The notes: generated by a model from the letters alone, not told the origin. A stretch of DNA of 64,000 nt from Bdellovibrionia bacterium (GCA_030424715.1 JAUHWH010000004.1:32437-96436); one strand, 5' to 3'; shown: positions 8,568-64,000, numbered from the stretch's first letter. Numbers and translations: made by a program.

Positions 8568-9110
8568 ATGGGCCAGGTTGTGGGCATTATCGGCAGTCTT
8601 AGAGAAAAATCCTATCATCGCCTTATTTTTAATCAATATAAAGACATGGCGAAAGACAGCTTTGATCTCGTAGAAGCACCCATAGGGGAGATCCCCATGT
8701 TCAATCAAGACGTGCTCGATTCTGATGGACTTCCGGCCTCGGTATCCTCAGTGGTTGACCAGATTCGTCAGGCTCAAGGGGTGATCTTCTTTAGTCCGGA
8801 GTACAACTACTCCGTACCCGGTGTTTTAAAAAATGCTTTGGATTGGATCTCAAGAGCGGATGATCAACCCCTTAACGGTAAGCCGTCGGCGATCATCGGA
8901 GCCAGCCCGGGCAATATCGGGACGGCTCGCATGCAGTACCATTTGCGTCAAATTGCTGTGTTTCTAAATATGAACGTACTCAACAAGCCAGAGGTGATGA
9001 TCTCTCGCGTGATGGAAAAAGTTGCAGAAGAAAAAATCTCAGACTCCAAGACAGAGGAGTTTCTCAAGAAGCACATTGCCGTCTTTGCCAAGTTTGCGGA
9101 GAAGTGGTGA
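8568..9110 (+). CDS. NAD(P)H-dependent FMN reductase family oxidoreductase
   Basis: Flavodoxin-like fold motifs VGIIGSLR...FFSPEYNYSVPGVLKNALDWISR. AAGGAG RBS. Confidence 0.8.
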   Translation: MGQVVGIIGSLREKSYHRLIFNQYKDMAKDSFDLVEAPIGEIPMFNQDVLDSDGLPASVSSVVDQIRQAQGVIFFSPEYNYSVPGVLKNALDWISRADDQPLNGKPSAIIGASPGNIGTARMQYHLRQIAVFLNMNVLNKPEVMISRVMEKVAEEKISDSKTEEFLKKHIAVFAKFAEKW

Positions 9111-10018
9111 GCCGAGAAAGCATGGATTCTGTCGACCAAGAGCGCACCGAAGCGCCTTGCTCTGGTGTGATTCGTTTGATTCACGCACGCGATAAAGATT
9201 TGGGTGGGTTTTCGGTTGGCAGAGTTCTGCCTTATCGAAAGCAACACATGGTAGGGCCATGGATATTCTTTGACCATATGGGACCAGCGACATTTCCTCC
9301 CGGCCTTGGTGTTAACGTGCGCCCCCATCCTCATATCAATTTGGCCACAGTGACTTATTTATTTGAAGGTGAAATTTTTCACCGCGATTCTTTAGGAAAT
9401 GCACAGTCTATCCACCCTGGAGATATCAACCTGATGGTGGCTGGGCGGGGAATCACCCATTCTGAACGCGAAACCGATGAGCAAAAGCAGCGCTCGCGGA
9501 AACTCAATGGTTTGCAGCTTTGGATGGCTTTACCCGAGGACTCTGAAGAAGTCGAACCCGAATTTCTTCATCACTCTTCCTCTGACATTCCGGATATCGA
9601 TGTGGACGGCGTGCCGGTGCGAGTGATGATGGGTGAGGCCTACGGGGCAACCTCTCCAGTGAAAACTTTTGGCGCGACTCTTTATGTCGAGGCTCGTTTG
9701 AAAAAAGGGCAGGCTCTAGTTTTGCCACCGGCTGACGAGCGCGGCCTTTACGTTGTTGAAGGTGAGCTGTTGATTGAAAATCAGACGGTAGAGGCTCGCT
9801 CCATGGCGATCTTGGACACCTCAGAAGTTAAAGTTGTGGCTCAGACCGACACCACAATTGCTTTGGTCGGCGGAGCACCCTTGGGCGAGAGACATATTTT
9901 TTGGAATTTCGTGTCGTCGAGCAAAGAGCGCATCAATAAAGCAAAGGCGGACTGGCGTGAAGGCCGATTCCCTAAAGTTCCGGGTGACGAAATAGAGTTT
10001 ATTCCTTTGCCGGAATAA
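9104..10018 (+). CDS. Pirin family protein
   Basis: Cupin metal-site motifs HPHINLATVTYLFEGEIFHRDSLGN...GITHSE. An alternative ATG lies at 9122. Overlaps the upstream gene by 7 nt. Confidence 0.85.
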   Translation: MVSRESMDSVDQERTEAPCSGVIRLIHARDKDLGGFSVGRVLPYRKQHMVGPWIFFDHMGPATFPPGLGVNVRPHPHINLATVTYLFEGEIFHRDSLGNAQSIHPGDINLMVAGRGITHSERETDEQKQRSRKLNGLQLWMALPEDSEEVEPEFLHHSSSDIPDIDVDGVPVRVMMGEAYGATSPVKTFGATLYVEARLKKGQALVLPPADERGLYVVEGELLIENQTVEARSMAILDTSEVKVVAQTDTTIALVGGAPLGERHIFWNFVSSSKERINKAKADWREGRFPKVPGDEIEFIPLPE

Positions 10019-10083
10019 GGCGCCGGAGGGTGAAGAGATTGAAATTGCTTGGGGTTGTCTCTTTGCATAGGTGAAGAGAGAAA

Positions 10084-11622
10084 TTGGGGGAAGCCATCGA
10101 AGAAAAGTCTATAGACAGTCAGTTGCAAAAAATTTTTAATATGTCCTCCTTTCGTTTGGGACAAAAAGAGATCATTGAATCTGTTATGTCTCAAAAAGAT
10201 GTGCTCGCCGTCATGCCCACGGGTGGTGGGAAATCCCTATGCTATCAACTACCCGCGATGATGAGTGATGGCATCACCATCGTGATCTCTCCGTTAGTGG
10301 CATTGATGAATGACCAGGTGGCCAATCTGCAAAAGATGGGTGTGCCGGCGGGAGCCATTCACTCGGGTTTGAGTGTTGACGAAAAAAAACGTGTGTTTCA
10401 GGAGATGGCCACTTCGGAACGTTTTCTACTTTACGTTTCTCCAGAGCGCGTGCAGAAAGCGGGCTTTGCGCCCTGGTTGGCCCAACAGAAGATCAATCTG
10501 TTTGCTATCGACGAGGCTCACTGTGTTTCTCAGTGGGGGCATGACTTTCGAACCGAGTATGGGCAACTGTCCCTGTTAAGAAAAATCAAGCCCGACACCC
10601 CGATGATCGGTCTGACGGCCACTGCCACACCTCTGGTCAAGCGAGACATTATTACGCAACTGGGGCTGACCGAGCCGGATGAGCATGTGTACGGTTTCTA
10701 TCGGCCGAATCTTTATTACCAAGTTGAGTTCTGTGACCACGAGTCTGAAAAAGAAGCTTTCGTTTTGAGTGCACTTGAAAAAACAAAACAAGGGCGAATC
10801 ATCATTTATTGTGGCACCCGTAAAAAAACGGAGGAGTGGTCGGATCTGTTACTATCACGGGGGGAAAGTGTGGGGTTCTACCATGCTGGCCTCGGCGCTT
10901 CAGAGCGACAACAGATTGAACAAGATTACCGCGAGGGTAAAATACGTATTCTCGCTGCGACCAATGCTTTTGGCATGGGTGTGGACCATCCGGATGTGCG
11001 TCTGGTCGCACACATTCAGATGCCGGGTAATATTGAGTCCTATTATCAAGAGATCGGGAGAGCCGGCCGTGATGGTCAGCCGTCGACTTGTCTTCTCACT
11101 TACTCTAAGAAAGACAAAGGTCTTCAGTCTTTCTTTATCACTCAATCTGACGCTAGTAAGCAGATCAAAGTGCAGCGCTGGTCGGCACTGAATGCGATGG
11201 TACAGTACGCTGAAGGGTCAGAGTGCAGGCACGCTGATATTTTAACTTACTTTAAAGATCAAAAGCGCATTGATAAATGCGGGCATTGTGATTCTTGTGA
11301 CCCCAGGTCCGACCGTCGTGTTCTTGCAACCATCAAGGTCGCGGCCACTAAAAAGAAAGCGAGAAAGAAGAAAGACGAGGCCCTGTTCGTTGCCCAATTG
11401 TCTGATGAGCAGCAGTGGAGAATCGACACGCTTCGGGATTGGCGTAAAGAGTATGCCAAAGAAAATGACATCCCAGCCTTTATGGTTTTCAGTGACAAAA
11501 CACTGCGTGACCTGGTTTTGCGCGCTCCGAAAACAACCGATGAGTTGGCTCGCGTCTATGGTTTAGGAGAAAAAAAGATCGGTGTGTTCGGCGAGACTCT
11601 GATAAACAAACTGCACCCCTGA
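10084..11622 (+). CDS. recQ: RecQ-family ATP-dependent DNA helicase with C-terminal HRDC domain
   Basis: Motifs MPTGGGKSLCYQLPA, DEAHCVSQWGHDFR and the zinc-binding CRH...CGHCDSC. HRDC-like tail AFMVFSDKTLRDLV. The start is uncertain (TTG 10084 or ATG 10141). Confidence 0.9.
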   Translation: MGEAIEEKSIDSQLQKIFNMSSFRLGQKEIIESVMSQKDVLAVMPTGGGKSLCYQLPAMMSDGITIVISPLVALMNDQVANLQKMGVPAGAIHSGLSVDEKKRVFQEMATSERFLLYVSPERVQKAGFAPWLAQQKINLFAIDEAHCVSQWGHDFRTEYGQLSLLRKIKPDTPMIGLTATATPLVKRDIITQLGLTEPDEHVYGFYRPNLYYQVEFCDHESEKEAFVLSALEKTKQGRIIIYCGTRKKTEEWSDLLLSRGESVGFYHAGLGASERQQIEQDYREGKIRILAATNAFGMGVDHPDVRLVAHIQMPGNIESYYQEIGRAGRDGQPSTCLLTYSKKDKGLQSFFITQSDASKQIKVQRWSALNAMVQYAEGSECRHADILTYFKDQKRIDKCGHCDSCDPRSDRRVLATIKVAATKKKARKKKDEALFVAQLSDEQQWRIDTLRDWRKEYAKENDIPAFMVFSDKTLRDLVLRAPKTTDELARVYGLGEKKIGVFGETLINKLHP

Positions 11623-11728
11623 CTCTTGGAGTTGGTGGCCTCTCGGCATTGATGGAAAGGGCGGGCTTTAGCAACCAAGACTTTCTAACACGACCACACA
11701 ATATGAGGCCTAGGGATTTGCCTAAGTC

Positions 11729-49907: not shown

Positions 49908-50267
49908 ATGACGACTTCACTTCTCACGTATTTGGCATTCGCTATTGGTAGTGTCGCTTTTATAATAGGCCTCTTAGCCATGTTGTTACCGACCAAGATG
50001 AGCGAAGGATTTGGTATTGCAGTCTCAGGGGCGGGCGTTCACTACGTTCGAGCTTTAGGAGTTCGAGATGTCTTTGTGGGGCTCGTGGTATTATTGCTTG
50101 GGTATTACGAGCAATGGACATCTCTAGGCTACGTATGTATTGCCATAGCCATTGTCGCAGCCAGTGATTTTTATACAGTCTTTCGGTACGGCCAACGCCA
50201 AGCCAGTTTCGCGCACCTGGCAGGTTTTGTTTTAAGCCTGGTGTTCTCGGCAGTCTTTTTTTGGTGA
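49908..50267 (+). CDS. DUF4267-like small membrane protein
   Basis: Four hydrophobic helices. ...RALGVRDVFVGL... pattern. Confidence 0.5.
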   Translation: MTTSLLTYLAFAIGSVAFIIGLLAMLLPTKMSEGFGIAVSGAGVHYVRALGVRDVFVGLVVLLLGYYEQWTSLGYVCIAIAIVAASDFYTVFRYGQRQASFAHLAGFVLSLVFSAVFFW

Positions 50268-50718
50268 CCCACATCCCTTGTACCTAAACCTATCAATAGA
50301 GTTCACTATTCGGCCGAGTAGATCTCCGACGTCGTTTGGAGTGGCGGTAACCTCTGCGAAACGCCACGAAAGCCTACCCTAGAACTGAGCACCATAGGCC
50401 CTAGCTGTAAGAAACTAGAGAATAAGCGCCAGATTGACTGAAGCCAATTATCGTTTATTCAGGTTCAAAGCAAGTAAGTCATTTTCTCTGAAGAGGTAGA
50501 AGTGGCATTTCACGGCCAAGAAGGTTGATTTAATTGTATCGCAGCTGAGAGTTTGCTCTATTTTTGTCCGGAATTCGGAATACTCAGCCTAAGTAGTGGA
50601 AATTAGATAAGTTAGTGGGTGTAAAATTACCAATATAAAGTGTTTAAATTGACTCAAAAATGCATATTCCATACAAGAGGTCCCTATGAACCTTGAGATT
50701 AACAAAGGGAAATATTAG

Positions 50719-51024
50719 ATGAACAAATTTAAGAACACGATCTTGGCACTAGCTTTCGTTTTTTCGCACTCACCAGCCTTTGCTGAGATGTGCATTTTGG
50801 GTAAGCAAGAAATTGTTTTGGCTGACGACTTTATTGAGTCTTTGACACCTGAGCAAAGAAAGTATCTCGATGCCGCTTTGAAAAAAGCTCAAGCCGATCC
50901 TGAAATTGAGCTTGAATATCAGCCAGGATGGGAAGAGTTCGATCTTGATAGCCTCGAAGCTACGGCCTGTGGCACACTTTCAAGCAATACGAATCCGACA
51001 GCTTCCGCGGGCGAACATTTTTAG
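50719..51024 (+). CDS. Small secreted acidic protein with an S/T/C-rich C-terminal tail
   Basis: Signal peptide MNKFKNTILALAFVFSHSPAFA. Mature part of 78 aa ending ...LEATACGTLSSNTNPTASAGEHF. Confidence 0.5.
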   Translation: MNKFKNTILALAFVFSHSPAFAEMCILGKQEIVLADDFIESLTPEQRKYLDAALKKAQADPEIELEYQPGWEEFDLDSLEATACGTLSSNTNPTASAGEHF

Positions 51025-51047
51025 TCGTCCTTGCCCAAGTACGTACG

Positions 51048-52097
51048 ATGAACTTTCTTGGAGACGCCCATAATTTTGGACAAAAAGTTAACAGGGAAGA
51101 CGACATCGTCAAAAAGCCACGTCCCGTCTTTTGGGAGTGGCTTTTTTTAGATACGGAAAGTGAGTTAAGACAGCTTCTCTCAAAAAGATCTCGGTTAGTC
51201 AGTACAGAAGACCCATTTTTATCATTTCCAAATTTGAATGTTAAAGAAGCCCCTGGGCTTCATGGTTTTCCGGCGGGAGTCGTTGATTACTTTCAAACGA
51301 CTGTTCCGGAAAAATCAGCAATGACTGATTCGTTAGCGAAAGCTGTTGGAAGAGCGATAGGAGTTGCTCATTTTTTTGGTCTCAGTGACCTTCATATTGA
51401 AAACTTTGGTGTTTCACAAATTACAAATGGCTGTTTCTTCTTTCCATTGGATATCGAAGTTATATTCAATCGTCTCAAATTAGCTTCTCAAACCTATATT
51501 TTAGACAGCGTAAAGAATGAATCTAAGATTGTTGGTCTGTCTTTGATGAGAAACAAAAACTTAAATATAGCGGCAGTTATTAGTAGTTACCTGCTGACCA
51601 TAGAGTTTTTGAATACTAATTTGAAAGAAATTAACGATGTTCTCGTTAAGTTAAATGTGAAAAGTATACCGATCAGGTGTATTGTGAAGCCATCGATGGA
51701 GTATGCTGATTATCTCAGGACCGATAACATCGAGTCCTCGGTCTTTTACCCAGAGGAACTGGAGCAGCTCGAGAGAGGGGACATCCCCTATTTTTTTCAC
51801 TATCTGGGCGACTATAGCATTAGATATTTAACTAAGGATGGCGAGAAAGTTACGAGTTTTTCATGGGAAGATGTATTCAAAATGGATTTGATATCGGAAA
51901 GTCAAATTGAACAACCAGTGTCTGTAGTTGATGAAAATGCAATAAAAGCCTCGATTCTGCAGATAGCAAGAACTTTAGACACTACCGTTGAGAATGACTT
52001 TTCGTTTGAAGCCACAACTGTTTCGTTTCAGGGTGACTCAATTTTTATAAAGTGTGGAACGGGTTGGAAGCTGAAATGCCAAAGGATGTCAAAATAG
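51048..52097 (+). CDS. Stand-alone DUF4135 protein (LanM N-terminal kinase/dehydratase-like domain, no LanC cyclase domain)
   Basis: LGDAHNFGQKV...IVKKPRP; GLSDLHIENFGV...FFFPLDIEVIF; IRCIVKPSMEYADYL; ELEQLERGDIPYFF. These blocks parallel those of class II lanthipeptide synthetase N-domains. No signal peptide. Confidence 0.6.
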   Translation: MNFLGDAHNFGQKVNREDDIVKKPRPVFWEWLFLDTESELRQLLSKRSRLVSTEDPFLSFPNLNVKEAPGLHGFPAGVVDYFQTTVPEKSAMTDSLAKAVGRAIGVAHFFGLSDLHIENFGVSQITNGCFFFPLDIEVIFNRLKLASQTYILDSVKNESKIVGLSLMRNKNLNIAAVISSYLLTIEFLNTNLKEINDVLVKLNVKSIPIRCIVKPSMEYADYLRTDNIESSVFYPEELEQLERGDIPYFFHYLGDYSIRYLTKDGEKVTSFSWEDVFKMDLISESQIEQPVSVVDENAIKASILQIARTLDTTVENDFSFEATTVSFQGDSIFIKCGTGWKLKCQRMSK

Positions 52098-53566
52098 CTA
52101 GATCTGCCCTCGTGTTTTTTCTTTTCATCCAAGCAAATCTTTCGGTGGCTTCTTCCGAGTTAGGTGTTGCTATACCTTCCTATATTGAAACCTATGAACC
52201 GAGTAAAGGGTGGAGCTTTTACCAACGTTTTATTATGAATTGCGTGTATCAGCGACTTTTCTCAATTGACCAGTTCGGTCAGGTTGAAGGTGAGCTTGCC
52301 GAGAGCTGGTTCTTTTCAAAATCTGGTAAGACTCTTACCTTAACAGTGTCTGATAAAGCGCGCTTCAGCGATGGTTCACCGGTTACCCTTGATGATATAT
52401 TCCTGTCATTGTCAAAACCGTTTGCGACTCCCGAAGATAGTTATGTTAACAGAGTTCTCGGGCCAGCTATGGGCTTGAGGGCTCCATTAAAAGTGGGTGA
52501 GATTCTTCCCAATCTTAAGCGGTTGGGTGGCCGCAGTTTTGCGATTGAGATGCAGCAAGTCTACCTTCCACTTATTGATATTCTGGGTAGCTACCTTTTT
52601 CCTGTGATGAAAACTACGGATAACTTACTCGGTTCAGGACCTTACATAGCGAAAAAAGAGAGACGAGGCCTGTGGACCCTCTATACAAATCCCTTTCATC
52701 AGGAGGGTGCTAAAAAAATTAAGAAAATAAAAATTTTGACGGAATTCTCGCAAGAAAAAGTCCAAAAATTGATTCAAAACAAAGAGATACACTTTGCTAT
52801 GGGATTCCACCTTCGAGACCTCCAGGATCAAGAAGGGACCTTCACAATCAAAAAGGTTTTGAAAGCAGGTTACAATCATTTCTATTTCAACCTCGAGAGT
52901 AGGTCTCTAAAAGATAAAAGTTTTAGAGCTTATCTTGGGCATATACTTAAAGACGTAGCAAGAAACCATTACTCACGGTTTGAGGAGTTCGTGCCACGAT
53001 TGCTTCCTCGAGGGCTACTACCCCTCGCTTATCATTCGCAGACGGTTGCGGCCCCAAAAGTCACCTTGCAACAAACGAAACTAAATATGCCAAGGTCGCG
53101 GATTAAGCTTTTATTTGTTGGGCGACACTTTGCGGATGGATTCTTCGAAGAGCTTCAAGCAGCTTTAGATAAGTCAGGCATAGATGGGAATATTGAGATT
53201 TTAAAAGGACCAGAGTATAACAAAGTAATACAAGAGAGAAAATTTGATGTGATTTCTTACCCGGTGATTCCTTCTTATCATGATCCAGATGGTTATTTTG
53301 CTGACCCAACCTATTTTTCAATTTGTGGTGATAAAAGGACCTGCCCCTATAAAAAAATGCTTTTAGCGGCAAGGTATGTAAAAGACAAGACGAAAAGAAG
53401 CGACCTTTTTTCTAAACTTTTTCGTAAAATTGAGTCGGATTGGATTCTTGTGCCTGGCTTCAAGACATCTATTCCGATTGCTATTTCAAATGATTTGATT
53501 TTGCCTCCGATTAACTACCGTGATCAGGTGAAGCTTTGGAAAATGGAGTTCAGAAATGCAAAGTAG
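52076..53566 (+). CDS. Periplasmic solute-binding protein, family 5 (peptide/nickel-type)
   Basis: Signal peptide. ...GELAESWFFSKSGKTLTLTVSDKARFSDGSPVTLDDI..., typical of SBP_bac_5. Overlaps the upstream gene by 22 nt. Confidence 0.7.
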   Translation: MPKDVKIARSALVFFLFIQANLSVASSELGVAIPSYIETYEPSKGWSFYQRFIMNCVYQRLFSIDQFGQVEGELAESWFFSKSGKTLTLTVSDKARFSDGSPVTLDDIFLSLSKPFATPEDSYVNRVLGPAMGLRAPLKVGEILPNLKRLGGRSFAIEMQQVYLPLIDILGSYLFPVMKTTDNLLGSGPYIAKKERRGLWTLYTNPFHQEGAKKIKKIKILTEFSQEKVQKLIQNKEIHFAMGFHLRDLQDQEGTFTIKKVLKAGYNHFYFNLESRSLKDKSFRAYLGHILKDVARNHYSRFEEFVPRLLPRGLLPLAYHSQTVAAPKVTLQQTKLNMPRSRIKLLFVGRHFADGFFEELQAALDKSGIDGNIEILKGPEYNKVIQERKFDVISYPVIPSYHDPDGYFADPTYFSICGDKRTCPYKKMLLAARYVKDKTKRSDLFSKLFRKIESDWILVPGFKTSIPIAISNDLILPPINYRDQVKLWKMEFRNAK

Positions 53567-54908
53567 CACTCCAAATTTGAAAAATAAGATTATTCTCCCC
53601 ATCATAGTTTCGAGCTTGATTATCCTTTCTTTTTTCACGGTTGTTTTATTTTTTACCTTTAATGATAAGCTCCTTGAGATTTCCAGTAGACAATATGAGG
53701 CTACTCTAGAGGTTTTTTCCAGGTCCATCCGTGATAGTTTTCTTAGAGGGCTCGATGGAGAAGTAAACCAATACTGTCGACTTATCCTCGCTGATGAGAA
53801 TGTTTCTTATGTTTCCGTGACTCGTGCTGATGGTGGAAAGATTTGTGATCTCCGGGGCGATAGGCCTTATGATCAGGCGATTGTTTTAGAAAGAGATATT
53901 CGTTTTAAAAAAGGTGGCGAGTCAGCTGGAGTTGTGGAAGTGCATTTCAATAGTGCGTATTATGGGTTGTTGATTGTTTATTTGGCATTGTCTTTATTTC
54001 TCTCGTTGTTTCTTTCCGTTATTCTATTCTCTTTCTTTGGCTCTAAATTCATAAGTCAGCAGATCGAACCCTTCTCACACCTAGCCGATCGTCTTTTTAG
54101 AGGGAAGGTTGAGGAACTTCAGGAGATTAACAAGATGCCGGGGGCCAATAGAAATTTCGAAATCCGAAGCTTAACAGATGGGGTCTCTTTCTTGGCGAAC
54201 TCCTTTATTTCCTATCAAGGAGAGATGGTAAAGTCGGAACGCCTCGATGCGATCAATGAGTATTCGAGATTGATTGCTCACGATATTAAAGCGCCAATAG
54301 CAGGAATTAAAGCAGGGGTGGATCATTTTAAAGCAAAGCCAGAAGCTTCCTTGAGGTTAATCTCTAGGAGTCTTGAGCGTATTGAATTCATGGTTGAGAG
54401 AATCCTAGAAAAAAATAAAATTGATGGGATTAAGCCGGAGCTGGAGCTCGTAAACTTCCAGAGTTGGTTTTTCACCTTAGAAGCGCCGTCTTTTGACGAG
54501 CTGGGGTATGATGAATCTAAACTCGAATTTGAACTGGTTGGTGACAAGAATGATGTTCTTTGCTTAGTCGATAGAGATCTCTTACTGCGAGCGGTATTAA
54601 ACTTACTAAAAAACTCGAAGGAAGCTATAGAGTCCACGGTAAAACCAAAGGTTCATGTAAAGGCGACATTGTCAGAAAAAGTGGTTATGCTTGAGATTAG
54701 AGATAATGGGCCTGGTTTCCCAAAAGAAGTTCTTGAAAACGTGGGGTCTCAAGGACTTACAATCGGTAAAGAAGGTGGAAGTGGGCTTGGAATCTATCAG
54801 GTCAAGAGGTCTGTGGAAATCATGGGAGGCGTGTTCTCGATTTCCAATCCGGTGGCGGGAGGAGCTTTTGTGGAGATTCATTTGCCCGTAAATAGTGGGA
54901 GTTTATAG
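53556..54908 (+). CDS. Sensor histidine kinase (2 TM, ~130-aa periplasmic loop), with no cognate response regulator nearby
   Basis: H-box SRLIAHDIKAPIAGI. N-box LLKNSKEA. DNGPGF and GGSGLGIYQV ATP-lid motifs. Overlaps the binding-protein gene by 11 nt. Confidence 0.85.
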   Translation: MQSSTPNLKNKIILPIIVSSLIILSFFTVVLFFTFNDKLLEISSRQYEATLEVFSRSIRDSFLRGLDGEVNQYCRLILADENVSYVSVTRADGGKICDLRGDRPYDQAIVLERDIRFKKGGESAGVVEVHFNSAYYGLLIVYLALSLFLSLFLSVILFSFFGSKFISQQIEPFSHLADRLFRGKVEELQEINKMPGANRNFEIRSLTDGVSFLANSFISYQGEMVKSERLDAINEYSRLIAHDIKAPIAGIKAGVDHFKAKPEASLRLISRSLERIEFMVERILEKNKIDGIKPELELVNFQSWFFTLEAPSFDELGYDESKLEFELVGDKNDVLCLVDRDLLLRAVLNLLKNSKEAIESTVKPKVHVKATLSEKVVMLEIRDNGPGFPKEVLENVGSQGLTIGKEGGSGLGIYQVKRSVEIMGGVFSISNPVAGGAFVEIHLPVNSGSL

Positions 54909-57013
54909 TGTTGAGTTTTGCTAATTTTATGAAATGGATTTTCTTCTTATATGTTTCATGCCTTTTACTTTCTTGTTCCACTACGGATAGAGACTACAAG
55001 TATGAAGACAATTTCTCTTTTTTGGAGACGCCTGACGCTAAGACGCAAAATTTTATTAAAACTCACAATAGGATTGCCAAAGAGAGCTTACTGTCAGACC
55101 CTTCACGCTTAAAGGAGAACGAGAGTATACTTGTCTCTAGTCAAACCAATCCTCGTATGACATTCGTGGGCCCCTACGTCTTCAAACTTGAAAAAAACAA
55201 GAGAAATCCACGCGGAAGGCTTCTTTTTACAGCCATAGACAAAATAGGTCAGAGATCTTCAGTTTGGAAGTCTGCCATTGACTTCGACAGACTATCGGCG
55301 AAAGAGAAAATCAAATGGTCCTTTTCAAAAATTGATTGTCTGTTGCCGGAAGCCAATTCTTGCCTTGTCCATCTCTCTAAAGATGGTGGCGATAAGGTCG
55401 AGGTAAGAGAATTTGATCTTCGAAAAAGACGGTTTGTAAAGAAAGGCTTTCGAGTCCCTATTGGCTTTACGAAAACGGCCTGGATCAACCCCAGCCAGAT
55501 TATGGTTGCAACGAACGTTGGTGACGGTACTGTCGGCTCTGGGGGACTTGCCAACCAGGTCAGACTGATCAGTCGGGGACAAAAGCTTACTGCCGGCAAA
55601 ATCATTTTTGGTCTTCAACCAGATTATATTAGTCTTTATTTTCAGGGACACCCCTATAAAAATTCTCAGCTTGTCATCGGAAGTCAGTTCGCTTCAGAGA
55701 AGAAAAATGATTTTTGGGTCCTGACTTCAGCAGAGCCTCAAAAAATTCCCACGCCCAAGGCGTCTATCTTTTATGGAATTCACAATGACTACCTTGTCTT
55801 CCAATGTTGGACTCCTTGGTTAGTGGGCGCGAAGCGTTGTGGAAAAGGGGATTTGATCGGAATACATATCGATCAAGCGGGGAGTAAACAGGCCTCTGAA
55901 GATAAGGTTATTGTTTTGTACAAAGCTCGCCCTGAATCATCTATTTACAGCGTCGGAGTCAGCTCCAAGGGTATTCTTGTAAATTATCTCGAGAATGTGA
56001 TTGGGAAGATTGTGGGCGTAAAAATTGACTCCAATCAAAAAAAACAGTCGCTACGACTTCGACGACTGTCTGGACACCTGCGGCTTCAAGAAGTCGACTA
56101 CAGAAAGGGTCGTTTTTTAGTCGGCAGCCAAGATTACCTCAACCCCGCAAGGCTTTCTTTATTCGATATCGATGAAAACAAAGCCTCGATCGTAAAAACA
56201 CAAGAGGCAAGTTTTGATTCAAAGGGCATGACTTATCAACAGCTTTGGGCCACCGCACCTGACGGTGTAAAGATCCCTTATTTTGTTGTTGGAAAGAAGA
56301 AAGCTTTAGCTAGTGGAAATGCTCCGACCATTGTTTTCTCTTACGGAGGTTTTGGTATCACCTATACTCCAAAGTACGATTCGTTGTTGGGAAAGAACTG
56401 GCTTGAGAAAGGCGGTCTTTACGTCCAGGCTGGCATTCGTGGTGGTGGCGAATTTGGTCCAGATTGGCACAAAGCCGCGTTACGAGAGAAGCGGGTAGTG
56501 GCCTTTGATGATCTTATTGCCGTTTTAAAAGACCTTGTTATTCGTAAGCTGACCACTAAGTCTAAGCTTGGGGCCTACAGCGGTAGTAATGGGGGCTATC
56601 TCTTAGGTGGGGTTATGGTGCGTGAGCCGAATCTCTTGAAAGCTGTCGCTCTTAAGGTGCCCTTGTTCGACATGCTCAATTTTCATCGCTTTCTTGCAGG
56701 TTCGAGCTGGGTTAGCGAGTATGGAGATCCAAGAGTTTCAAAAGACCGAGCTTTTCTAGAAAGGCTTTCTCCATATCAAAACTTATCTAAAAAAGTGAAT
56801 TATCCATCGACGTTTGTTTATACCTCTTCATCAGATGATCGTGTCCATCCAAGCCATGCTCGCAAGATGGCCGCCAAATTATTAGACTACGGGAGCGAAG
56901 TCTATTTTTATGAAAGTCAGGAGGGTGGCCACGCTGGAGCAGCAACACTCAAACAACAGGCTTATTGGGAGACCATGATGTTTCAGTTTTTCCAGTTAAA
57001 GCTTGGTCTGTAA
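54908..57013 (+). CDS. Prolyl oligopeptidase (S9A) family serine peptidase, lipoprotein
   Basis: GTG start after GGGAG, overlapping the kinase stop by 1 nt. Lipobox SCLLLSCS. Beta-propeller N-domain. Catalytic GSNGGYL (Ser), SSDDRV (Asp) and EGGHAG (His). Confidence 0.85.
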   Translation: MLSFANFMKWIFFLYVSCLLLSCSTTDRDYKYEDNFSFLETPDAKTQNFIKTHNRIAKESLLSDPSRLKENESILVSSQTNPRMTFVGPYVFKLEKNKRNPRGRLLFTAIDKIGQRSSVWKSAIDFDRLSAKEKIKWSFSKIDCLLPEANSCLVHLSKDGGDKVEVREFDLRKRRFVKKGFRVPIGFTKTAWINPSQIMVATNVGDGTVGSGGLANQVRLISRGQKLTAGKIIFGLQPDYISLYFQGHPYKNSQLVIGSQFASEKKNDFWVLTSAEPQKIPTPKASIFYGIHNDYLVFQCWTPWLVGAKRCGKGDLIGIHIDQAGSKQASEDKVIVLYKARPESSIYSVGVSSKGILVNYLENVIGKIVGVKIDSNQKKQSLRLRRLSGHLRLQEVDYRKGRFLVGSQDYLNPARLSLFDIDENKASIVKTQEASFDSKGMTYQQLWATAPDGVKIPYFVVGKKKALASGNAPTIVFSYGGFGITYTPKYDSLLGKNWLEKGGLYVQAGIRGGGEFGPDWHKAALREKRVVAFDDLIAVLKDLVIRKLTTKSKLGAYSGSNGGYLLGGVMVREPNLLKAVALKVPLFDMLNFHRFLAGSSWVSEYGDPRVSKDRAFLERLSPYQNLSKKVNYPSTFVYTSSSDDRVHPSHARKMAAKLLDYGSEVYFYESQEGGHAGAATLKQQAYWETMMFQFFQLKLGL

Positions 57014-57183
57014 AATCTTATCAGTTACTGCGTAATCAGCTGGTCATAAATGCTCTGTCTTGCGCCGAGGATTCATATCAGCCGCTCGCTAGTAACCAGC
57101 CATGCCAGGCCTCCAGAACAACCGAGACTCCCGAGGTAAGCCCGGTCACCCCAAGCTACGCCGAGAATCTTACTCTAACCAAC

Positions 57184-57453
57184 TTAGGTACCGTGACATC
57201 CGCGACGGACTTCTGAGCGGTGCTTTAATTTTCGTAAGCCACTCCCCCCCCCCCAAGATTCTTTTGTGATAGGCACCTCGCCCGCCTGCAAAAGGTAGAA
57301 GGGGTTGTGTCCTAGTTCGTGAGCAAGCGAAATGGCGAGATCAAAATCACTAAATTCTGATTCTGGGCAGAGACTCATGGTAAGCAAACCAAGGGTAGAA
57401 TAATTACTTCCACCGCCACCGATATAGTGAGTTTGCTCTTGTTTTTTTAGCAA
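57184..57453 (-). pseudogene. Remnant of a reprolysin/adamalysin-like (M12B-type) zinc metalloprotease
   Basis: ...STLGLLTMSLCPESEFSDFDLAISLAHELGHN matches the (gl.....mC ... AHELGHN) layout, but the GxxH(D) third ligand is missing. There is no ATG or RBS. The ORF carries a G11 tract and is short in all frames. Confidence 0.4.
57244..57254. repeat. C11 (G11 on the minus strand) homopolymer tract
   Basis: Read directly from act-ccccccccccc-aag. Confidence 0.95.
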
Positions 57454-57489
57454 CCAAATGTCTGATAAGCAAAAGGTCCGCCAGTCAGG

Positions 57490-58620
57490 TTATCTATTGA
57501 GTTTAGAGCCCTCAAAAAGAATATAGTTCTCCGCGATAGAAGGAGCCAACCTTTCTACCAGCCACTCATAAACATGTTGAGGTGGGTGAATATCAAAGTA
57601 CTCGTCTCCTGGGCGCTGATCACAAATGGAGTAGTTTCTGACATTGGGGCAATCAGACCCATTGGAACATCGTTGCTTTTGTCGTTCTTCCTTGCAGTAT
57701 TTTTTACCAATGGTATCCAACCGAAGCCAGGGAATGTCAGGATACTCCTCAACCACTTTCAGCCACTCACGTCGACTGATTTCCTGGGCGTAGGCCGAGA
57801 ACAGTGCGTGAATTTTGTGCATGCAAAACAACTTTGTATTTCTCTTCTCACAGCTAGCTCTGCGACTTCTTATAATGTTACGATTTATCATTAGCCAAAA
57901 GTATCGATAGAAGGCGCTCCTTAATACAAAAAACCGATGCCAAATTGGATATTCATCCCCTCGCTTGATAAGCAAAGGAATACTCTCGAGCCAAAGATCC
58001 CTATTTCTTTTCAAACGAACATTATATTCCTCATCGCGATAAAAAAAGGCCCTCCTGCCGGAGTTTGCATCCTGAACAATAACCAGGTCTGGGGCCAGAC
58101 GTGGAATCAGCTCTCTTGCATACGCTACTTTCTGAGACATCACATAGGCACTAAGTCCGGCATTCCAAACTTCGACTTTCTTCTTTAGCTTCATTTCATT
58201 TAATTTCTTTTCAAGCAGAGCGGGATAAGTCCCGTCATCGGAAACAGAGACTCCAAAAGTATTTGAGCCTCCAAGAACTAATATCCTATAAACATTTTCA
58301 GCTTTGACAAGAGAGTGACGACGACCGCGAAATCCAAATTCGTTCACACTAAGCTCGATATCACCCGTAATCACCTCGTCTTTATGTCGACAATTCTGCG
58401 TACAAATAGCTTTCGATTGAGGAATCAATTCATACACTCGCTCTGCGTTTTCAGACGGCCGGTAAAGCTCCACGCCTCCCTTGTAAGAAAAATCACCTTC
58501 AACAAAATAGGCTGTTGGCCAAAACTCTTTAACATCGAGATCTGTCGCTCTAATAACGATTTCTAGTGTCGCAAGGGATACAATAAATCCCACAAGAGTC
58601 AGAACAATTTTTCTAAACAT
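57490..58620 (-). CDS. SGNH/GDSL-like hydrolase with N-terminal membrane anchor
   Basis: Block I ILVLGGSNTFG. Block III VWNAGLS. Block V YFDIHPPQHVYEW. N-terminal TM helix. Confidence 0.55.
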   Translation of the reverse strand: MFRKIVLTLVGFIVSLATLEIVIRATDLDVKEFWPTAYFVEGDFSYKGGVELYRPSENAERVYELIPQSKAICTQNCRHKDEVITGDIELSVNEFGFRGRRHSLVKAENVYRILVLGGSNTFGVSVSDDGTYPALLEKKLNEMKLKKKVEVWNAGLSAYVMSQKVAYARELIPRLAPDLVIVQDANSGRRAFFYRDEEYNVRLKRNRDLWLESIPLLIKRGDEYPIWHRFFVLRSAFYRYFWLMINRNIIRSRRASCEKRNTKLFCMHKIHALFSAYAQEISRREWLKVVEEYPDIPWLRLDTIGKKYCKEERQKQRCSNGSDCPNVRNYSICDQRPGDEYFDIHPPQHVYEWLVERLAPSIAENYILFEGSKLNR

Positions 58621-60226: not shown

Positions 60227-61021
60227 TCAACGGGTCATCGGGAGACTCAACGGAAGTTTTTTAAGATGCTTCCAGACATAGCTCTTGCCCCGCAGAATAA
60301 CTAATCGTGCAATTTCTGCCGTGGCTAGAGCCGCAGCTTGTGAAGATCCTGTTAATTTTCCGATACGGTTACCCGGCAAAGTTGAACTGATCTCAAATCC
60401 GGGAAAAAAGTAGTTAGTTTTGTTCGAGTTAATATTACTTGTCTCCATAACCTCACCTTGTGGCCCCGTACCGACCACGGAAATAACATTCGGAAAATTG
60501 TAGGCTGCGGGATAAAAAGCAAAGTTCACCTGCGCTGGTTTTTTATTACCGGCCGCCGCGACAACCAAAATATTTTGTTTATAGGCTCTTTGAAGAAGTT
60601 GGCTCTCCATCTCCGAAGGCTTCGGTCCACCGGCTGAAATATTAATAATATCGACGTTCAAACGGATCGCTTTGTCGATGGCTTCGGCCAAAGACAGCGT
60701 CAACTCTTGGTGATTTGAAGAGCTTTGGTAGTAGCGAATGGGAACAATCTCGATACGATCATTGAGCTGTCTTTTTGTAAGGGTGCTAGCAATAATGCCA
60801 GCGATGTGGGTTCCGTGGCCGGTAAGGTCGATTCCATCACTTTTCGAGGGAATCCTCACCATAGCTTGTAGAAGTTCGTGTTCAAAGTCGACTCCTGTAT
60901 CGATAACAGCAATCTTTAAAGGAGGCTGTTGCCGTAAGGTCACCGATGTTCGGCTGTGGCCAAAGAAAGGAAACAACAAAAAAGATATAAAAAAGAAATG
61001 GAGACTGCCTGCTCTTAACAC
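60227..61021 (-). CDS. S8 family (subtilisin-like) serine peptidase, compact
   Basis: Complete triad boxes IAVIDTGVD, GHGTHIAGII and LTGSSQAAALA, plus AAAGN. Confidence 0.85.
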   Translation of the reverse strand: MLRAGSLHFFFISFLLFPFFGHSRTSVTLRQQPPLKIAVIDTGVDFEHELLQAMVRIPSKSDGIDLTGHGTHIAGIIASTLTKRQLNDRIEIVPIRYYQSSSNHQELTLSLAEAIDKAIRLNVDIINISAGGPKPSEMESQLLQRAYKQNILVVAAAGNKKPAQVNFAFYPAAYNFPNVISVVGTGPQGEVMETSNINSNKTNYFFPGFEISSTLPGNRIGKLTGSSQAAALATAEIARLVILRGKSYVWKHLKKLPLSLPMTR

Positions 61022-61120
61022 CCCTCTATTTTAGCGAAGTGTGCAGGAAATCTCCAGGAAATGTGAACCAAAATTCACATTAATAGGCTAAGGCCCTTCG
61101 CGAGGGCCGGGAATCTTCAA

Positions 61121-61582
61121 TTAGTAGCGCTTGTCGTTGGTTCCAGTGTTGGAATCATCGCGCATGTTGCTGTCCATACTATTTGGCTGAGAGTAGTCGT
61201 TGTCGATACTGGCAGGTTGTCGGGTCTGCTCCATGCTGTCGTTTGAATTAGTGGCGGTGTTAATTTGCAGCGCTGCCACGGTTTCTTGATTCAATTCACC
61301 TGTTTTTGTATACAGCCCTTGGTCTTGTTGAAAAGAGGCGAGAGCATTTCGGGACTGAGTCCCTAGGATACCGTCAACATCCACTGAATAGCCTTTTTTG
61401 TTCAGTGTTCTCTGTACATCCATCACGGTGTCTTTCGAGAACTTATCGTGCTGTTTGTATTCAGAATTCATTTTATGGTCATTCATCTTCGAATGAGAGC
61501 CGTGACTTCCTGGTCCAGCGACAACCTGTGCGGTCCATAGCATTGCGATCATTGAAATTGAGTACTTGATAAATGTTTTCAT
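61121..61582 (-). CDS. Secreted peptidoglycan-binding (PG_binding_1) domain protein
   Basis: ATG 61582 after AAAGGAG. Signal peptide. VQRTLNKKGYSVDVDGILGTQSRNALASFQQDQGL. Confidence 0.7.
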   Translation of the reverse strand: MKTFIKYSISMIAMLWTAQVVAGPGSHGSHSKMNDHKMNSEYKQHDKFSKDTVMDVQRTLNKKGYSVDVDGILGTQSRNALASFQQDQGLYTKTGELNQETVAALQINTATNSNDSMEQTRQPASIDNDYSQPNSMDSNMRDDSNTGTNDKRY

Positions 61583-61864
61583 AACATCTCCTTTGTATAG
61601 CAAGAGAATCTCAAGATTTGCAGATTTTGTCTTGTTGCAGGTGTTGATAGCCTGTGAAAAGTTCAACACATCTTTTTAGGGTACCTATTCTTTCTCCCGT
61701 GCGGTGTCTCTTCAGTCGATCAAACCCTCGAAGTCGTTAAGGCGCGGCAAGGAGGTGGTGGGTTTATAAACCTATTTTACTGCCTGTAGAATCCAACCTA
61801 CTGAGGATGACATGGAGAGGGGGCGGTATCAGCTGAGTGACGGGTGATCTGCGCAAGGTGGTTG

Positions 61865-62551
61865 CTACGCTGCCTTTTTCTTCTGTCTCTGCTTATTTCT
61901 CGCGCGGCGAAATCCCTTAGCCACAGCTTCCTTCACAGTCCTTACAAAGTGCTCTCCATTTTCAGGGTGAATCTTCACTTTGTCATAGTAGGGATCAAAG
62001 GGGAGGTGGTAGATCTTTTCACCTTTGGAGTTCACATTGCACTTCACTAAAGCGTAGGTCTTTTTCAGTGGCTCTGTACTGAGTTCAATGCCCAAGACTT
62101 CTGCGACTTCTTTGGCTTTCTTGGTGTATTGGGCCGTTGTGTAAAAACGAGCAAAAACTTCGTGGCCCCTTCTTTTTGAAGTGCGTTTGAAGTGTTCCAT
62201 TGATCCGTAAAGTTGAAAAATGGAGTTTTCATGTATCTGTTTATAGCCAGCCCAGCACTTGGTTTGCACAATGACTGTCTCTTTGGCCTCGTAACTTGTG
62301 ATTATGAGATCTCGCCCCATGTCGCTAAAGCCATTGAGAGCACCGTGATAGTTGACGTGGTAGCCTTCAAGCTCGTACAGGTGACCAATGTATCTTTCGT
62401 AGAAAGTGCCTATTTCCAGTGGTGAAAAGTCCCCCTTTAAATACTGATCGAGACTCTTTTGCGCCTGATAGTTTTCATCGAGAACTCGGCGAATCCAGAA
62501 GATTAGAGTAGCCAAAATCCCGATGGCTAAAACAACAGGGATATATTCCAT
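61865..62551 (-). CDS. Membrane-anchored restriction-endonuclease-like (Mrr_cat) protein with a basic C-terminal module
   Basis: N-terminal TM. YERYIGHLYELEGYHV...SDMGRDLIIT...VIVQTKCW (PD-(D/E)xK-type core). The C-terminal VKCNVNSKGEKIYHLPFDPYYDKVKI module is seen on many DNA-associated proteins. Confidence 0.6.
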   Translation of the reverse strand: MEYIPVVLAIGILATLIFWIRRVLDENYQAQKSLDQYLKGDFSPLEIGTFYERYIGHLYELEGYHVNYHGALNGFSDMGRDLIITSYEAKETVIVQTKCWAGYKQIHENSIFQLYGSMEHFKRTSKRRGHEVFARFYTTAQYTKKAKEVAEVLGIELSTEPLKKTYALVKCNVNSKGEKIYHLPFDPYYDKVKIHPENGEHFVRTVKEAVAKGFRRARNKQRQKKKAA

Positions 62552-62705
62552 ATAGAGATATCGGGTTTGTTTGGCATAAAAATTACGGACCTAGGTCGTT
62601 GATTATGACCTTAAAACTTGCAGACATTAGCCAATCTTTAAGTTTTGGAACGAATTAGAATATTTGGGAAGGATTTAGAGTCTATTCTGGGGCTGTTGTT
62701 AGGAG

Positions 62706-62759
62706 ATATTCAATATTCAAATTTAGAATATTGAATATTGCGTCGCAATCTGATAGCAT
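62706..62759 (+). promoter_or_regulatory. 33-nt near-perfect palindrome overlapping a candidate extended -10 promoter for a leaderless transcript
   Basis: ATATTCAATATTC-AAATTTA-GAATATTGAATAT (62706-62738). TTGAAT (62731-36), 17 nt, then TGaTAGCAT (62751-59). The ATG at 62766 is only 6 nt after the -10 element. Confidence 0.45.
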
Positions 62760-62765
62760 CTGAGT

Positions 62766-63284
62766 ATGAGACAAAAGGATTCCCTTAAGCCACAAGATAT
62801 TGTTTTAATAGCTAAACTTATGCTCCTCCCTGAAGAGGACTGGAGGCAGATTGATGTCGCTAATGCATTACTGTTGCCCCAGGGTGAGGTGGCAAAGGCG
62901 CTTGTACGATTAAAAAAATCAGGTTTACTCACAAACAAGAGAGTTAATGTTTCTGGAGCCCTGGAATTTCTTTCGCATGGCCTAAAGTACGTTTTTCCTG
63001 CTGAACTTGGGGCAGTTGCTGTGGGTATTCCAGCAGCTATGTCGGCACCATTTTTCGACCCCGATTTATTACAAGGTGAAGGTGACCTCTATGTTTGGCC
63101 CAGTTCACTAGGTAAAACGAGGGGGCAAATAATCATCCCTTTCTATCCCAAAATGCCAGAAGCTGTTTTTAAAGACAAAAGTCTTTACGAATTGATGGCC
63201 TCAATTGAGGTTTTAAGAATTGGAAGAGCTCGTGAGAGAAAAATAGCCTTTGAAAAAATAAAGAAAGTAGTACACGTGAAATGA
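62766..63284 (+). CDS. Winged-helix DNA-binding protein (antitoxin-like partner)
   Basis: The N-terminus ...DIVLIAKLMLLPEEDWRQIDVANALLLPQGEVAKALVRLKKSGLL looks MarR/wHTH-like. Its stop overlaps the next ATG (ATGA). Confidence 0.5.
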   Translation: MRQKDSLKPQDIVLIAKLMLLPEEDWRQIDVANALLLPQGEVAKALVRLKKSGLLTNKRVNVSGALEFLSHGLKYVFPAELGAVAVGIPAAMSAPFFDPDLLQGEGDLYVWPSSLGKTRGQIIIPFYPKMPEAVFKDKSLYELMASIEVLRIGRARERKIAFEKIKKVVHVK

Positions 63285-63991
63285 ACAAAACAGAGTTGGT
63301 AGAACATATACGTTTGGTCGCCCATATTCTTGGAGATATAGGAGACAAGGCAGTTTTTGTAGGCGGAGCTACAATTCCATTTTATATCCCGGAAGAATAT
63401 TGGCCAAGAGCAAGGGCAACAAAAGATATTGATATTGTGTTAGAGATTTTGTCGCACCAAGAAAATTGGAAGCTAGAAGAGAAATTAAGAAAAAAAGGCT
63501 TTGTAAATGATACCAGGGAAGGAGCTCCCCTTTGCCGATGGATAGTCCAAGAAATTACTGTTGATATAATGTCAGTTGAAGAAAAAATTTTTGGTTTTAC
63601 AAACAAATGGTATAAAGAGGGGTTTAAAAAAGCTTTTCAGTTAAGGGCACCATTGCCTGAGGTCAAAATACTTCCTCTTCTCTATTTTTTAGCTACGAAA
63701 GTCGAAGCCTTTCTTGGGCGTGGAGAGGGTGACTTTTATGGTAGCCACGATATGGAAGACATCATTTCACTGCTAGAAGTGGTGAGCGCTGAAGATATTT
63801 CCCAAAATATGGAGGCGGCATCTGAAGAGCTTAAAGAGTACTTAGGTTTGCACTTAAAAGCTTTCAAAGAAAATTCAAGTTTTCGAGATGCTGCCCCCGG
63901 AGCCGTATTTAACCGATTACAACCTCGAGAGGGATTAAAAAAAGTTCTTGATAAGGCCGACTCAATCATTGAAGGATGCAAAAGTGAGTGA
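63281..63991 (+). CDS. Pol-beta-superfamily nucleotidyltransferase (AbiEii-like toxin candidate)
   Basis: VFVGGATIPFYIPEEYWPRARATKDIDIVL fits G(G/S)-x(n)-DxD. 4-nt overlap with the upstream wHTH gene. Confidence 0.5.
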   Translation: MNKTELVEHIRLVAHILGDIGDKAVFVGGATIPFYIPEEYWPRARATKDIDIVLEILSHQENWKLEEKLRKKGFVNDTREGAPLCRWIVQEITVDIMSVEEKIFGFTNKWYKEGFKKAFQLRAPLPEVKILPLLYFLATKVEAFLGRGEGDFYGSHDMEDIISLLEVVSAEDISQNMEAASEELKEYLGLHLKAFKENSSFRDAAPGAVFNRLQPREGLKKVLDKADSIIEGCKSE

Positions 63992-64000
63992 GAGAGGAGT

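Follow-up and report, generated by a model that had tools for sequence, protein, structure and literature searches.

The 349-aa protein encoded at 51048-52097 is best read as a cyclase-less, minimal LanM-type enzyme that probably acts alone in tailoring a RiPP-like peptide, as part of an autoinducer-like circuit, a reading to which we give a probability of roughly 0.6. The window (the whole stretch of 64,000 nucleotides from a Bdellovibrionia bacterium that was analysed) holds the enzyme gene directly behind the gene of a small, putatively secreted protein and ahead of the genes for a binding protein, a sensor kinase and a peptidase, as follows.

50719-51024, + strand: precursor protein of 101 aa, an open reading frame with no Pfam family match
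51048-52097, + strand: minimal LanM-type kinase/dehydratase (DUF4135) of 349 aa, ATG start, predicted to be cytoplasmic
52052-53566, + strand: family-5 periplasmic solute-binding protein (SBP_bac_5; PF00496, E 5.6e-22), 504 aa from a GTG
53556-54908, + strand: membrane sensor histidine kinase of 450 aa (PF02518, E 2e-16; NCBIfam histidine-kinase families)
54908-57013, + strand: S9 prolyl oligopeptidase of 701 aa (PF00326, E 1.8e-37, and PF02897)

A bare LanM-type domain

The sequence-only reading had taken the open reading frame at 51048 for essentially the bare LanM-type DUF4135 domain, with no cyclase, N-terminal extension, signal peptide or obvious Shine-Dalgarno sequence, and our results agree with it on each of these points. 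PF13575 (DUF4135) is the sole Pfam match of the protein, which begins four residues before the P-loop GDxH and has neither the N-terminal region of LanM nor its cyclase. No match to LanC (PF05147) was found in the protein or across the 3.13-Mb genome, which was searched with a loose first look. Upstream of the ATG, the frame stays open for at least 30 codons and that stretch contains no ATG, GTG or TTG, thus making an N-terminal extension impossible. The N-terminus is not hydrophobic, and no GGAGG-like Shine-Dalgarno sequence was found in the 23-nt spacer before the ATG. The motifs on which the assignment had been based are all in place, namely G5-D6-x-H8...K23-P-R25, D114-L-H116-x-E-N119...P-x-D135-x-E137, K214-P-S216-x-x-Y219 and E237...G244-D-I-P-Y-F249.

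The PF13575 score passes the gathering cut-off (30.6 bits against 29, E 2.6e-7), and by itself it is borderline, at 1.6 bits over; it is the combined evidence from profiles, structure and relatives that makes the assignment solid. The NCBIfam LanM model TIGR03897 gives a local match only, at 27.8 bits against a cut-off of 304. Fifty relatives were listed in the homologue search, almost all of 333-426 aa and annotated with PF13575, the closest among the matches listed being 35% identical to the window protein. All 30 of the 30 relatives that were aligned match PF13575 and no other family, with a best E of 3.9e-18. In a six-frame search of the protein's own genome, the Pfam model lacks the sensitivity to pick up this clade and missed even the gene at 51048; a profile built from the family recovers that gene easily. 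Likewise, a single-sequence phmmer search of the PDB returned LicM2 alone, at E 0.61, and a profile search was needed. The family profile finds LicM2 (6st5, E 4.6e-6) and CylM (5dzt, E 8.7e-6), aligned on four motifs: GDxH...KPR, DLHxEN...DxE (CylM 347-366), RxxxxxT (CylM R506...T512) and DIPYF.

Structure prediction leads to the same place. The AlphaFold2 model of the protein (pLDDT 86, pTM 0.89) has as its best PDB match in Foldseek the class II synthetase CylM (5dzt, E 1.1e-7, probability 1.00, query-normalised TM-score 0.53), followed in rank by PI3K and PI4K lipid kinases, and the CylM dehydratase domain has itself been described with the same lipid-kinase-like pattern (PMC4550811). No RRE or other recognisable peptide-binding domain was found in the enzyme. 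When the C-terminal 104 aa were modelled alone, the model was mediocre (pLDDT 69) and its best PDB match, a polo-box domain at E 0.29, was not significant.

The small size is not peculiar to the window protein. An exhaustive profile search of 1.84 billion representative proteins gives 398 clusters (at 50% identity) with E<=1e-30, and nearly all of the best 150 of these 398 clusters are 330-400 aa long. The minimal enzymes thus form a sizeable natural family.

Catalytic residues and expected chemistry

In CylM, phosphorylation uses K274, D347, H349, N352 and D364, and elimination of the phosphate uses D252, H254, R506 and T512, with the T512A substitution abolishing elimination (PMC4550811). 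All nine positions are kept in the window protein, with Ser in place of Thr512: K23, D114, H116, N119 and D135 make up the phosphorylation set, and D6, H8 and R210 are joined by S216 in the elimination set. A Lys stands where CylM has the Arg neighbouring Thr512. Because Thr512 is replaced by Ser216, elimination may be weak. Phosphorylation or dehydration of Ser and Thr, as the sequence-only reading proposed, would nonetheless be the chemistry to expect of a protein that retains the residues for both steps.

Across 80 family members, conservation extends to both sets. The phosphorylation residues are kept at K23 in 77 members, at D114 in 80, at H116 in 77, at N119 in 80 and at D135 in 79; for elimination, the counts are 75/80 for D6, 79/80 for H8 and 80/80 for R210, and position 216 is Thr in 73 members and Ser in six. 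Near-invariance at the positions equivalent to those of CylM thus indicates that the full kinase-plus-lyase set is under selection.

The precursor peptide

The gene at 50719 ends 23 nt before the enzyme gene and encodes a protein that carries, as judged by inspection, a Sec-type signal peptide over residues 1-22 (AFA|E), followed by a small helical region with a conserved DFIxSLxxEQRxYL. Next to its C-terminus lies a docking-like motif, F74-D-L-D-S-L-E80 (nt 50938-50958), and then a Ser/Thr-rich tail, ATACGTLSSNTNPTASAGEHF (nt 50959-51021), so that the junction reads ...EEF-DLDSLE-ATACGTLSSNTNPTASAGEHF. No NHLP- or Nif11-type leader is found on the 101-aa protein, which has no Pfam match and has the Sec-type signal instead. 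Homologues of it adjoin the DUF4135 gene in L001, L057, L058/59, L060 and L055, and D75 and E80 of the motif are invariant across six long precursors. In the clade of the window enzyme, motif and tail form the C-terminus of a protein of about 95-105 aa with an N-terminal Sec-type signal peptide.

At nearly every locus a small open reading frame ends shortly before the enzyme gene, and its product combines the motif hydrophobic-hydrophobic-(D/N)-L-x-x-(L/I)-E with a following tail of some 9-22 residues that is rich in Ser, Thr and Gly. By a fixed regular expression, an open reading frame with this motif that ends between -200 and +40 nt of the DUF4135 start shows up in 28 of the 39 loci, the background rate among all other stop-to-stop frames being 0.29%. 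Elsewhere in the family the motif peptide may be very short, such as MENITVIDLTSIEAEAESYESSASSN (26 aa) from the gene arrangement that we call layout B below. The ATG of these short peptide genes is preceded, at a distance of 5-9 nt, by a ribosome-binding site of the GGAGG type, and codon pairs compared across the peptide genes comprise 315 identical, 415 with synonymous differences and 1012 with non-synonymous ones. The codon-pair pattern and the ribosome-binding sites thus point to peptide frames that are translated and selected at the protein level. Comparison across loci lends strong support to the earlier suggestion that the substrate is the tail of the 50719 protein, since a homologous peptide with the motif and a Ser/Thr-rich tail precedes the gene in these 28 of 39 loci; we accordingly treat that tail as the putative substrate in what follows.

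Further regularities concern the tails themselves. A Ser-Ser pair lies 16-17 residues past the Asp/Asn of the motif in 12 of the 13 correctly anchored layout-B peptides, a spacing that resembles the ruler-like order of recognition motif, spacer and core in class III leaders (PMC8341899). Cys is missing from most of the homologous cores; the window tail has one, C84, on the N-terminal side of its Ser/Thr cluster. Pro occurs in the tails of all three precursors that accompany an oligopeptidase (window, L057 and L001).

As for expression, no sigma70-like or sigma54-like promoter stood out in simple scans of the 451-nt gene-free stretch at 50268-50718 ahead of the precursor gene, and promoter and terminator scans of 50200-57600 gave results at the level of shuffled sequence and were uninformative. 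An NtrC-type regulator encoded in layout B prompted a search for sigma54 -24/-12 promoters upstream of the peptide genes, which yielded no convincing match.

The cassette and its conservation

The SBP_bac_5 gene has a likely alternative start at an ATG at 52076, and its product has an N-terminal signal sequence; compared with NikA, OppA and GsiB, it gives only matches far below the cut-off. No ABC permease or ATPase gene lies near it among the annotated neighbours in the window. The histidine-kinase gene overlaps it by 11 nt and encodes two transmembrane segments, a HisKA domain (PF00512, E 1.4e-4, at 22.2 bits under the 26.9-bit cut-off) and a HATPase_c domain, with no receiver domain; a response regulator is likewise missing from the window cassette. 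The prolyl oligopeptidase has a probable lipoprotein signal, LLLSC, the lipobox being judged by inspection, and the cassettes nearest to that of the window, in L057 (same genus) and L001, both have an orthologue of it. S9 prolyl oligopeptidases mature some RiPPs and lanthipeptides, for example FlaP (PMC10885120), and the one encoded here is a candidate for the periplasmic protease that processes the Pro-containing tail of the precursor.

The comparison drew on flanks of about 8 kb, contig permitting, of 36 family members encoded in genomes of this phylum, together with metagenome contigs. The gene is patchily distributed in the phylum: 32 of 401 genomes have it, and among the six further genomes of the host's genus only one does. 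Searches with tblastn and clustering of open reading frames show that SBP_bac_5 and histidine-kinase genes adjoin the DUF4135 gene in most of the Bdellovibrionota loci examined. Two arrangements stand out. In layout A the order is precursor, DUF4135, SBP5 and histidine kinase (window, L057, L058/59, L060, L050, L055, L075 and L076). In layout B, which occurs at 14 loci and was annotated with Pfam, the order is sigma54 NtrC-type regulator, MFS transporter, SBP5, hybrid histidine kinase, precursor and DUF4135, and in a maximum-likelihood tree this layout is one clade. The window enzyme groups with those of L057 and L001 with support of 100/97, and the cassettes of all three have an S9 prolyl oligopeptidase of about 700 aa and Sec-signal precursors.

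The MFS transporter gene accompanies short precursors without a signal and is missing from loci with a Sec-signal precursor; L050 and L075, with short precursors and no MFS gene, are the exceptions. Of all the evidence, this complementary pattern speaks most strongly for a peptide destined for export. No conserved immunity gene or ABC exporter was found among the loci. Between the window and L057, identity over the five cassette proteins is only 25-37% and the genes on either side are not the same, so that the cassette is fast-evolving and accessory. This accords with where it lies, to the right in the window, where the GC content is lower.

Several features of the surroundings deserve mention in their own right. 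At the lower-GC end of the window, 60227-64000 is an accessory or defence-island-like neighbourhood, with the following genes.

60227-61021, - strand: S8 subtilase
61121-61669, - strand: peptidoglycan-binding protein
61865-62551, - strand: Mrr-type restriction endonuclease
63281-63991, + strand: AbiEii-like nucleotidyltransferase

Layout-B cassettes often lie within a few kb of a conserved transfer-like block (L044, L047, L048 and L051-L054, and also L058 and L059), composed of a TraC/VirB4-type ATPase of about 807 aa and four small or membrane proteins, which suggests that the cassettes are carried on an integrative conjugative element. At L074 (oriented 9070-11718), an 882-aa open reading frame apparently fuses the MFS transporter of the cassette with its family-5 binding protein, as either a real fusion or a sequencing frameshift.

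Divergent relatives

A monophyletic clade of enzymes of about 390-400 aa (L002-L004 and L006-L008, on metagenome contigs of 54-71% GC) has a different setting. A DTW-domain gene (PF03942, tRNA acp3U transferase family) always lies 3' of the DUF4135 gene and in L007 also 5' of it, and the enzymes end in a Cys motif, VGSVYLPCxCGEV..VFVP.VT.C. No motif peptides were found beside the genes of this clade; peptide modification is thus not universal in the family, and the DTW-linked enzymes probably have a different substrate.

Relatives of 552-587 aa (L070 and L072, and also L071 and L067) are extended at the C-terminus, and ahead of their genes lies that of a precursor of classic lanthipeptide appearance (...ELELPDIDELSAYASAESVACMTTFMCGPVTTSCTT). 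A membrane protein of 243 aa and a protein of 366 aa are conserved beside them, and no LanC was seen nearby; the 366-aa neighbour, considered as a split LanC partner for the 587-aa relatives (L070 and L072), was rejected as it resembles, by eye, a family-2 glycosyltransferase.

A proposed modified-peptide circuit

What the analysis shows is the fold, the family membership, the retained catalytic residues, and the conserved gene neighbourhood with its precursor motif; from these we infer the following course of events. The cytoplasmic enzyme would dock on the F74-DLDSLE80 motif near the C-terminus of the precursor and phosphorylate Ser/Thr of the tail with ATP/Mg2+ through K23, D114, H116, N119 and D135; by homology, S88/S89 would be the most likely sites, as a best guess. 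The phosphate would then be eliminated through D6, H8, R210 and S216 to give dehydroalanine or dehydrobutyrine. A Sec signal on a RiPP precursor is unusual and requires that modification take place before translocation, after which Sec would export the modified precursor and the lipoprotein prolyl oligopeptidase may trim it after Pro, with P69 and P93 as candidate cut sites. The freed peptide would be bound by the periplasmic family-5 protein, which would in turn control the adjacent histidine kinase. More speculatively, dehydration of Thr94 combined with a cut after Pro93 could leave an N-terminal enamine and then a 2-oxobutyryl group, in a manner similar to the PoyF pathway.

Several other accounts have to be weighed against this circuit. 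Chemistry might end with phosphorylation, so that a peptide phosphorylated on tail Ser/Thr is the end product, as for EmbM and phospeptin. This has the precedent of EmbM, a known cyclase-less LanM-like enzyme that gives a diphosphorylated peptide (PMC9505594), and the window enzyme has Ser at the position of CylM Thr512, where substitution by Ala abolishes elimination, and Lys at the neighbouring Arg. EmbM, on the other hand, is reported to be without the elimination residues, whereas the window enzyme keeps D6, H8, R210 and a hydroxyl at 216, a position held by Thr in 73 of the 80 relatives, and we thus regard a kinase-only enzyme as unlikely. The substrate might also lie elsewhere than in the upstream peptide, the enzyme being a small-molecule or lipid kinase or a kinase of a protein in a signalling pathway. 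The fold is lipid-kinase-like, with PI3K and PI4K following CylM in the Foldseek ranking, and no peptide gene adjoins those of the DTW-linked enzymes, which belong to the same family. We nevertheless consider this very improbable, given that a motif-bearing peptide frame lies directly upstream in 28 of 39 loci and that residues of the LanM elimination step, which would be purposeless in a simple kinase, are near-invariant. The small-molecule or lipid kinase that the sequence-only reading had kept as a fallback is thus unsupported for the clade of the window enzyme and could apply only to the DTW-linked one.

A further account accepts the modified peptide and assigns it a different role, as an antimicrobial or predation effector, with the binding protein and kinase serving autoregulation or immunity in the way of LanRK in lantibiotic clusters. 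In favour of this, the host is predatory, exported weapon-like genes lie beside the cassette in an accessory region richer in AT, and layout-B cassettes often adjoin TraC/VirB4-type transfer genes. The cores, however, are very short (about 10-13 residues), acidic and Ser/Gly-rich, come without a cyclase and mostly without Cys; neither an immunity gene nor an ABC exporter is conserved, and it is the sensing components that are the tightest partners of the enzyme. An effector role is for these reasons quite unlikely in our view.

Returning to the autoinducer-like circuit, a broader generalisation would be that predatory Bdellovibrionota use a hitherto unrecognised class of RiPP pheromones, in the form of short linear peptides with dehydroalanine or dehydrobutyrine (or phospho-Ser) made by a 350-aa enzyme, exported by MFS transporters or, in the window, by Sec with trimming by an oligopeptidase, and read out by SBP5 and histidine kinase. 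We advance this tentatively, at somewhat less than even odds. If it were true, the fast divergence (25-37% identity within one genus) and the patchiness would fit pherotype-like, horizontally mobile modules.

Significance

The family represents the smallest natural version of the LanM dehydratase, at about 350 aa compared with about 650 aa for the domain in the synthetases, and it offers a compact catalyst for the installation of dehydroamino acids. A minimal enzyme of this kind also provides a test of which parts of LanM serve catalysis and which serve leader binding. At the level of the cassette, the conserved association of the enzyme with precursor, exporter, binding protein and sensor kinase suggests that predatory bacteria signal from cell to cell by means of peptides. 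If the proposal is true for the window, its Sec-signal precursor and lipoprotein prolyl oligopeptidase would amount to an unusual route of RiPP export and maturation.

Comparison with known systems

With the LanM synthetases (CylM 5DZT, LicM2 6ST5 and LctM), the window enzyme shares the kinase-like fold, the catalytic motifs and a gene adjacent to that of the precursor. It differs in being about one third of their size, with neither the LanC cyclase nor the ~240 residues at the start of LanM, and in the much shorter distance between the D-x-E metal site and the R...T elimination motif, which is about 39-47 family-profile positions as against 100-110 residues in LicM2 and CylM. Most cores in the window family are, moreover, without Cys.

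PoyF is a cyclase-less LanM-like dehydratase of the polytheonamide pathway, where proteolysis after dehydration leaves an N-terminal alpha-keto group (PMC9505594). PoyF and AerF, from the proteusins polytheonamide and aeronamide, are like the window enzyme cyclase-less LanM-type dehydratases, a likeness drawn from their description. They act on precursors with NHLP-type leaders, together with many more tailoring enzymes, and their products are cytotoxins, whereas the window enzyme is the sole tailoring enzyme, its precursor belongs to no Pfam family, and it is encoded together with a binding protein and a sensor kinase. EmbM, of the phospeptin pathway in Ca. Eudoremicrobium, acts as a kinase only, lacks the elimination residues and gives a phosphopeptide (PMC9505594). 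The EmbM cluster is similar to the window in having a single cyclase-less LanM-like enzyme, one Cys-free precursor and histidine-kinase and regulator genes (PMC9505594). Its precursor, on the other hand, has a Nif11-type leader with a Gly-Gly site where the window precursor has a Sec signal, and the window enzyme keeps the elimination set that EmbM is reported to lack.

CcaM (LanMbC, dehydrazoles) is a divergent DUF4135 dehydratase that forms dehydroamino acids without lanthionine rings; it is about 1015 aa long, is fused to a class III-type cyclase domain needed for activity, and accepts only azole-containing cores (PMC10676384). The study of CcaM dropped DUF4135 proteins under 500 aa, and the minimal family was thus left out (PMC10676384).

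Literature searches found no published description of the minimal DUF4135 family or of such a circuit. On the sensing side, LuxP-LuxQ and TorT-TorS are binding-protein-dependent sensor kinases, and nisin with NisRK forms a peptide autoinducer circuit. Judged by gene context, the window appears to resemble these systems: a gene for a periplasmic binding protein is coupled to one for a histidine kinase, ABC transporter genes are lacking, and the gene of the presumed ligand is adjacent. It differs in that the binding protein belongs to family 5 (Opp/Dpp/Nik type) and that a peptide modified by a LanM-type enzyme would be the ligand. Relative to PoyF and EmbM, what is new is the very small size of the enzyme, its sole tailoring role, its link to a binding protein and a sensor kinase and, in the window, a precursor with a Sec signal.
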